From the UHGV virus genome UHGV-0138820: a stretch of DNA of 20,449 bases. One strand, 5' to 3'. The stretch's first letter is position 1, and every line of letters begins with the position of its first letter. Below the pieces are notes generated by a model. The model saw nothing but the letters and a program-made list of their open reading frames with translations. It made no database searches and was not told where the DNA came from. This stretch comes from a virus. The translations under genes and the position numbers were made by a program. Of the stretch, positions 19,524 to 20,449 are shown in pieces.

Positions 19524-19534
19524 AAAATAGCCAG

Positions 19535-19570
19535 TTTTGGGGAAGGGTTTTGGGGAAAGTTTTGGGGAAG
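19535..19570 (+). repeat. Three direct repeats of TTTTGGGGAA(G/A) in the int-proximal attachment arm
   Basis: gttttggggaag / ggttttggggaaa / gttttggggaag at a 12-13 bp period, between the int stop and the icd terminator. Possibly arm-type recombinase or accessory-factor sites. Confidence 0.4.
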
Positions 19571-19603
19571 ATTTTACATCATCATAAAACAACGGGCGTG
19601 TTA
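19567..19603 (-). terminator. Rho-independent terminator of icd (minus strand)
   Basis: AACGGGCGT-ataac-ACGCCCGTT (perfect 9-bp stem) followed by GTTTTATGATG on the minus strand, directly after the icd stop. Confidence 0.65.
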
Positions 19604-19636
19604 TACGCCCGTTTCAATATTTAACACATGTAGTGA

Positions 19637-20449
19637 TTACATATTCTTGATGATCGCGTCACCAAACTCTGAACATTTCAGCAGTTTAGCGCCTTCCATC
19701 AGACGTTCGAAGTCATAGGTTACGGTCTTGGCATTGATTGCGCCTTCCATACCTTTAACAATCAGGTCAGCCGCTTCAGTCCAACCCATATGGCGCAGCA
19801 TCATCTCAGCGGAGAGAATAATAGAGCCTGGGTTTACTTTGTCCTGTCCGGCATATTTCGGCGCAGTACCGTGGGTGGCTTCAAACAGGGCGCATTCGTC
19901 ACCGATGTTTGCGCCAGGGGCGATACCGATACCACCAACCTGCGCTGCCAGGGCGTCAGAAATGTAGTCACCGTTCAGGTTCATACAGGCGATAACATCA
20001 TATTCAGCCGGACGCAGCAGGATCTGTTGCAGGAATGCATCAGCAATCACGTCTTTAATGACGATCTCTTTGCCGGTATTCGGGTTTTTAACTTTCAGCC
20101 ACGGGCCGCCGTCGATCAGTTCACCGCCAAATTCTTCACGCGCCAGCTGGTAGCCCCAGTCTTTAAACGCGCCTTCGGTGAACTTCATGATGTTGCCTTT
20201 GTGCACCAGGGTCACAGAGTCACGATCGTTAGCAATTGCGTATTCGATCGCTGCACGAACCAGACGTTTGGTGCCTTCTTCCGAACACGGCTTAATACCG
20301 ATACCGCAATGTTCCGGGAAGCGAATTTTCTTCACGCCCATCTCTTCACGCAGGAATTTAATCACTTTCTCAGCGTCGGCAGAGTCTGCTTTCCATTCGA
20401 TACCCGCATAAATGTCTTCCGAGTTTTCACGGAAGATAACCATATCGGT
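19637..20449 (-). CDS. icd: Isocitrate dehydrogenase (NADP), C-terminal part; gene continues beyond window end
   Basis: The translation ...[76 protein letters not shown]...[13 protein letters not shown] matches E. coli Icd as recalled. The frame is open to the window edge. Confidence 0.9.

Follow-up and report, generated by a model that had tools for sequence, protein, structure and literature searches.

Genes and sites between xis and icd

The window, meaning the whole stretch of 20,449 nucleotides analyzed here (UHGV virus genome UHGV-0138820), carries near its end two phage recombination genes and, converging on them, the gene for isocitrate dehydrogenase, icd. The xis gene (18155-18391, plus strand) encodes an excisionase of 78 aa (Pfam Exc PF07825, E 6.7e-06), overlaps the start of int, and has matches labelled excisionase in phage 21 and in the matching E. 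coli genomes. The int gene (18381-19523, plus strand) encodes a protein of 380 aa, the orthologue of phage 21 Int, with which it shares 377 of 380 residues (99%). Residues 1-71 correspond to the arm-DNA-binding domain of lambda integrase (Pfam Arm-DNA-bind_1 PF09003, 1.8e-28), and the catalytic domain is C-terminal (Pfam Phage_integrase PF00589, 8.9e-24). The protein aligns over its full length with the lambda Int structure 1z1b (2e-55), and the catalytic residues R-K-H-R-H-Y are all kept (motifs GQRLGD, EKTG, FHEQRS, LLGHKS, and DRY). This domain layout and these residues are those of a lambda-family heterobivalent tyrosine integrase.

The icd reading frame lies on the minus strand, with its stop codon at 19637-19639 (Pfam Iso_dh PF00180, 1.4e-64). 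The int stop codon ends at 19523, leaving a gap of 113 bp (19524-19636) between the two convergent genes. The part of this gap next to int contains three exact copies of TTTTGGGGAA, at 19535-19544, 19548-19557, and 19560-19569. With one mismatch allowed, the motif has seven matches in the whole window against 1.5 expected, a number reached in none of 100 shuffled sequences. Tandem Repeats Finder reports an array at 19533-19575 with a period of 13. When lengthened to 12 bp, the three repeats all fit TTTTGGGGAARR and give the plus-strand dodecamers TTTTGGGGAAGG at 19535-19546, the farthest from the attachment core, TTTTGGGGAAAG at 19548-19559, in the middle, and TTTTGGGGAAGA at 19560-19571, the nearest to the core. 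All three are putative Int-binding sites of the arm type.

The part of the gap next to icd contains a hairpin on the icd strand (19591-19613, minus strand). A terminator scan found a stem from 19613 to 19591 with nine pairs, six of them G-C, and a loop of 5, followed by GTTTTATGAT; the same stem is present in the minimum-free-energy fold. A G+C-rich stem-loop with a U-run on the icd strand is what is expected of a Rho-independent terminator, and the hairpin is therefore a predicted intrinsic terminator of icd. An Rfam scan of 19300-20000 gave as its sole hit a sub-threshold match to tpke11 over the terminator (20.8 bits vs a gathering threshold of 43, E 0.073), which is treated as chance or as generic terminator resemblance. 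No tRNA genes were found in the window, so a tRNA attachment site is excluded. The spacing of the two stop codons, the three direct repeats, and the terminator hairpin had all been pointed out in a first-pass annotation made from the letters alone, and each was recovered here: the first by the coordinates of the reading frames, the last by scan and fold together.

An alignment of the window with the attP of phage 21 and 4A7, the attB of ATCC 8739, both e14 junctions of K-12 (attL and attR), and the far junction of the same prophage in strain Rb-23 divides this region into three segments. The first, 19524-19583, is 60 bp of phage-only sequence; it matches phage 21 and 4A7 at 100% and has no meaningful match to the attB of prophage-free strains. 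The second, 19584-19800 (minus strand), is a block of 217 bp that is found in free phage genomes and prophage-free hosts alike, and the copy in the window is phage-derived. It consists solely of the 53 terminal icd codons together with 2 nt from the codon before them, the stop, the 3'UTR, and the terminator. It matches 4A7 at 99.1%, phage 21 at 94.0%, and the attB of ATCC 8739 at 96.3%. The third segment, 19801-20449 (minus strand), is host-derived icd, assigned by Iso_dh content and host identity, and runs off the window. It is 97.8% identical to ATCC 8739 and K-12 and 99.8% identical to Nissle and ST80, and a comparison with the free phages gave no match.

A phage-borne ending for icd

The stretch 18100-19800 is 98.8% identical to phage 21 (M61865, OL657228) and 99.2% identical to the free lambdoid phages 4A7, 3W, 1W, Perceval, and others. 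These matches take in xis, int, the repeats, the terminator, and the final 164 nt of icd and break off exactly at 19800; phage D2 is the only phage that matches beyond this point, over the whole query. The order given in the phage 21 record is xis, int, attP subsites, terminator, and an ICDH-like pseudogene. The feature that covers the dodecamers in OL657228 reads 'attP 3 subsites P1P2P3, consensus YYTTCCCCAAAA', the position equivalent to the hairpin is labelled 'terminator', and the pseudogene is described as 'ICDH-like protein; 99% identical to last 53 AA of ICDH'. Since the same features are labelled there, the triple repeat, the hairpin, and the icd tail all belong to a known attP. Almost certainly, then, a lambdoid prophage with the phage 21 int/xis/att module is integrated in icd, and 19524-19800 forms the P' arm of its attL.

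The first-pass annotation had placed a prophage in the 3' end of icd and had taken the icd terminator to be phage-borne and the C-terminus ending in GDAIIKNM to be likely so. All of this is borne out by the free phages, which match up to 19800 and carry the corresponding terminator and icd tail. The phage-supplied coding segment (19637-19800, minus strand) is translated as ...LRHMGW...GDAIIKNM*, and this end of 53 residues is identical in the window, phage 21, 4A7, the IMG/VR attP of L022, Nissle, and ST80. A host-type end, ...GEAIIENM*, is encoded by the prophage-free strain ATCC 8739, by the displaced icdC remnant of K-12, and by the attR copies in L011, L015, and L019. Phage-type and host-type Icd differ by two residue changes, E410D and E414K.

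Up to 13 of 217 nt vary among the phage-type blocks, and one of the differences is between TCA and AGC codons for serine, yet the encoded residues stay the same. Such synonymous-only variation indicates that a working Icd end is probably under selection in lysogens. One may go further and regard the C-terminus with D410 and K414 as a conserved lysogenic-conversion allele that would alter the behavior of isocitrate dehydrogenase, e.g., its stability or regulation. This reading is allowed by the intact 21-type blocks, which encode the same residues despite up to 13 nt differences, and the Rb-23 lineage keeps KNM also in its displaced copy; the reading is nevertheless considered improbable. A separate case is the icd' block of L012 in IMG/VR, in which a 1-nt deletion would give a truncated ...TVTMTSNV* end if fused to icd.

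Junctions of this kind are already known, ordinary, and well documented, as can be seen from the annotation of the phage 21 record and from the 1623 of 5426 complete E. coli genomes (~30%) that match at least 80% of a query running from xis and int through att into icd. The minimal attP is reported to measure 366-418 bp, with 209 bp of icd homology, in a study by Wang et al. of 1997, in which the dodecamers are also said to have been proposed as arm sites. In one review, phage 21 is described as swapping 165 bp of the icd 3' end for an alternative ending of unknown biological impact (PMC4129442).

The junction offers no new biology. It shows how a phage can target a gene of an essential pathway without inactivating it. 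For annotation, it matters that the last 164 nt of icd in this strain, the stop, and the terminator are phage DNA. Icd is an MLST locus, and typing schemes and phylogenies based on it call for caution over the 3' end.

Direct repeats and the crossover interval

Three dodecamers of the type YYTTCCCCAAAA are present between int and the icd' block, at 19535-19571. Phage 21 (L001 3321-3332) and 4A7 each have a fourth, oriented alike, on the P arm of attP, even though the P arms of these two phages differ in sequence. The outermost of the four attP dodecamers span 397 bp. Loci with other integrases were obtained by searching IMG/VR with the junction of P arm and core, which returned 14 loci, and the arm beyond the icd terminator was compared. 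L022, whose Int is 100% identical to that of the window, carries the triple repeat TTCCCCAAAA. L014 and L018, with an Int 61-62% identical, carry three copies of TTATCAAAA instead, and the same arm with the same three copies is found in L010, L013, and e14 of K-12, for which the comparison covered the arm. In L023, where Int is 59% identical, the three copies read CT(N)CAAAA / TGCAAAA. Three integrase types are therefore accompanied by three different triple repeats, all in the same position past the terminator.

In lambda, three tandem arm-type Int sites adjoin int, and Xis sites lie on the P arm. The comparative evidence is strong that the triple repeat likewise represents putative arm-type Int sites, a reading favored by the conserved position of the repeats, by the way in which their sequence varies along with the integrase, and by the arm-binding domain of Int. 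The first-pass annotation had left the choice between Int, Xis, and IHF sites; Int is favored by the comparison, and IHF finds no support, as the consensus WATCAANNNNTTR is absent from 19500-19850 at up to one mismatch. Lambda-type att arms do hold IHF and Xis sites, and the repeats might be read as binding sites for one of these proteins and not for Int. Sites matching WATCAANNNNTTR are confined to the opposite arm, with an exact match in the phage 21 P arm (L001 3289-3301) and a second site at 3222-3234, and exact sites are found on the P arms of both phage 21 and 4A7 attP. The Xis sites of lambda also lie on the P arm, its int-adjacent sites being of the arm type. As the repeat sequence moreover shifts with the type of an integrase that has an arm-binding domain, an assignment to IHF or Xis is very unlikely.

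An additional exact copy of TTTTGGGGAAGA, the copy found at 19560-19571, occurs at 13269-13280, inside an unannotated ORF of 89 aa just downstream of the cI-like repressor gene. Only ~0.01 full-dodecamer matches are expected by chance in the window, and 10-mers with one mismatch lie at 13063-13072 and 13137-13146, at most 210 bp away. This extra dodecamer may be due to chance. A search of the phage collection found no phage sharing the ORFs around it.

The position of the crossover can be bracketed from both sides. Its upper limit is given by the end of phage homology at 19800, and its lower limit by the first prophage-dependent SNP, at 19784, in lysogens that share the host icd allele of the window. 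Those compared were Nissle 1917 and one ST80 strain, both of which have a 21-type int beside icd. They differ from the window at 1 of 649 positions in 19801-20449. In 19584-19800, the differences rise to 7 of 217 in Nissle (Fisher p = 4e-4) and to 13 of 217 in ST80 (Fisher p = 1e-7), with prophage-specific SNPs already at 19784, 19772, and 19769. A probe fusing host 5' sequence to phage 21-specific SNPs has exact matches in at least 572 records. Strand exchange is thereby confined to the interval 19785-19800 (minus strand), TGCTGCGCCATATGGG in the sense of icd, within which the exact cut sites would lie. The first-pass annotation had put the core within 19637-19800, which holds true of the 5' edge of that range, and had described it as lying in the last codons of icd, which does not, as it lies about 54 codons before the stop.

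The same annotation had proposed that icd identity to prophage-free strains continuing past the stop codon would speak against the prophage. Prophage-free E. coli do align from 19584 to the end of the window (e.g., ATCC 8739, where iraM is next after icd), and host identity extends 53 bp beyond the icd stop, down to 19584, at 96%. The test was ill-posed: since the phage has a homologue of this stretch, such identity does not refute the integration. What is informative about the boundary is the point where free phages cease to match and the sudden rise in SNP density when lysogens of a single host lineage are compared.

The far end of the prophage lies outside the window and was examined in near-identical genomes. 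The closest complete genome is that of Rb-23 (99.8% identity, 100% coverage of the whole window). Its prophage measures ~59.7 kb and ends in a P arm with the same sequence as in phage 21, with IHF consensus sites and, in attR, a further dodecamer (L005 26274-26285). Next to the P arm lies the icd remnant that the first-pass annotation had expected at the other prophage end, a sequence of 168 bp (L005 26401-26568) labelled 'missing N-terminus', followed by ycgX and bluR.

The two ends of this prophage disagree at one site. At 19733, attL has a host-like T and the attR of Rb-23 has a C, the base present in every examined phage-linked block with phage-type SNPs. This site misfits a simple crossover at the 5' edge between a 4A7-like attP and an ATCC 8739-like attB. 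In addition, the Rb-23 remnant (...GDAIIKNM) and L020 of IMG/VR encode the phage-type KNM end, and the displaced copy in Rb-23 is accordingly not a pristine host allele. This suggests either that an earlier phage had overwritten the host icd tail or that the 217-bp repeats had exchanged sequence. Wang, Whittam, and Selander (1997) are said to have described natural isolates in which sequence of phage 21 or e14 takes the place of the icd 3' end.

The discordance at 19733, and the fact that attL is phage-like from 19718 downward, could also be taken to mean that 21-type crossover takes place deeper in the shared block, e.g., at 19695-19732, and not at its 5' edge. The chances of this are slim. 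ST80 and Nissle, with the same host icd allele, already have prophage-specific SNPs at 19784, 19772, and 19769, the probe matches point the same way, and the attR copies of L011, L015, and L019 are host-type over the entire block; a single discordant site is more simply explained as allelic variation or as gene conversion between the 217-bp repeats. A native icd 3' end, with the prophage inserted between genes, past the icd terminator, is still harder to defend. It would account for the prophage-free identity that runs through the stop to 19584, but free phages hold the same block up to 19800, the SNP density of same-lineage lysogens jumps at 19800 and not at 19584, and a second copy of the block is present at the opposite prophage end. 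An intergenic integration site is refuted by these observations, and a crossover at 19785-19800 is retained.

Integration, related elements, and prophage cargo

The Int of this prophage would act like lambda Int. Its N-terminal domain would hold the three int-adjacent direct dodecamers and the fourth on the P arm of the far end, while its core-binding and catalytic domains would exchange strands within TGCTGCGCCATATGGG, giving an attL in the order host-core-P'. As the crossover would take place ~54 codons before the icd stop, the phage carries its own copy of the icd 3' end, the block of 217 bp. On integration, this copy would be fused in frame to the host icd, so that the gene would stay intact and terminated, with two residue changes, and the original icd 3' end would be left as a promoterless remnant at the opposite prophage end.

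The module closely resembles that of phage 21 (M61865, OL657228) in gene order, terminator, icd' block, and the junction at 19800. The P' arm with its three dodecamers is 100% identical, Int is 99% identical, and the encoded Icd C-terminus is the same. Unlike the arm, the icd' block differs from that of phage 21 at 13 of 217 nt, the coding differences being all synonymous, and from that of 4A7 at 2 of 217. The rest of the prophage is a different lambdoid mosaic with cargo genes.

Like lambda, the system has an Int that is homologous to lambda Int over its full length, arm-binding domain included, and keeps its catalytic residues, three tandem sites of the arm type beside int on the P' arm (here putative and recognized by sequence), and a P arm with IHF consensus sites and a further arm site. 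It differs in its target, which lies inside a protein-coding gene, whereas that of lambda is intergenic. With the icd block of 217 bp intervening, a distance of ~215-265 bp separates the P' arm sites from the core, and the 397 bp spanned by the outermost arm sites exceed the whole lambda attP, which measures about 240 bp.

The defective prophage e14 of E. coli K-12, with its attL in icd and its icdC remnant, uses the same target core. The first e14-specific attL SNP is at the equivalent of 19790 and P-arm homology begins at the equivalent of 19801, which gives a core interval of 19791-19801. This interval overlaps the 21-type interval of 19785-19800 in TGCTGCGCCA, in agreement with the literature, according to which a single bacterial site inside icd serves both phage 21 and e14 (PMC3530522). 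Like the prophage in the window, e14 carries a replacement icd 3' end with a terminator and has three direct arm repeats just past this terminator. Unlike it, e14 has TTATCAAAA repeats, a different terminator stem, and a supplied Icd that ends in ...LMDGA...GDAIIENM*, and its int is not beside icd, since ymfD, ymfE, and lit lie in between. The Int with which an e14-type arm is associated in L014 and L018 is the one 61-62% identical to the window Int. That the element in the window is itself e14 or e14-type has next to nothing in its favor beyond the shared icd site and is refuted by a block just 87% identical to the one supplied by e14 in K-12, by an unrelated arm without the three TTATCAAAA repeats, and by the other terminator stem and gene order.

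In four of the IMG/VR loci (L010, L013, L018, and L021), a P' arm of e14 type, with TTATCAAAA repeats, is attached to a P arm and core of 21 type. These loci are either two icd-targeting elements arrayed in tandem or phages whose attP is a hybrid.

Several other features were observed in this prophage. The segment 4944-9566 (minus strand), cargo with the nin region on one side and the replication genes on the other, encodes an inverse autotransporter of 1540 aa with an IAT_beta domain and many Invasin_D3/Big_1 domains. Within it lie four tandem copies of 357 bp that are 99% identical (6838-8257), and its orthologue in Rb-23, of 4266 bp, has one repeat fewer. A second cargo gene beside it (3864-4907, plus strand) encodes an alpha/beta hydrolase (BD-FAE/Abhydrolase_3, 5.7e-45). 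Within the replication-initiator gene (10514-11518, minus strand), iteron-like tandem repeats of 19-23 bp (TTTACCTSATTCRGGTAAAC) at 10965-11058 are presumably the lambdoid ori.

Outside the window, the Rb-23 prophage contains the sitABCD iron/manganese transporter genes between the tail-fibre genes and attR (L005 21038-24487). In the same prophage, the major capsid gene is interrupted by an element of ~10.6 kb, located in Rb-23 at L004 1-5749 and L005 1-6139 and in strain 95-3322 at L003 28529-40276. This element encodes an integrase of its own, a primase, and an Icd-like division inhibitor, has capsid and decoration genes and, in Rb-23, also a TIR-domain gene, and looks like the helper-embedded satellites described previously (PMC10111431).
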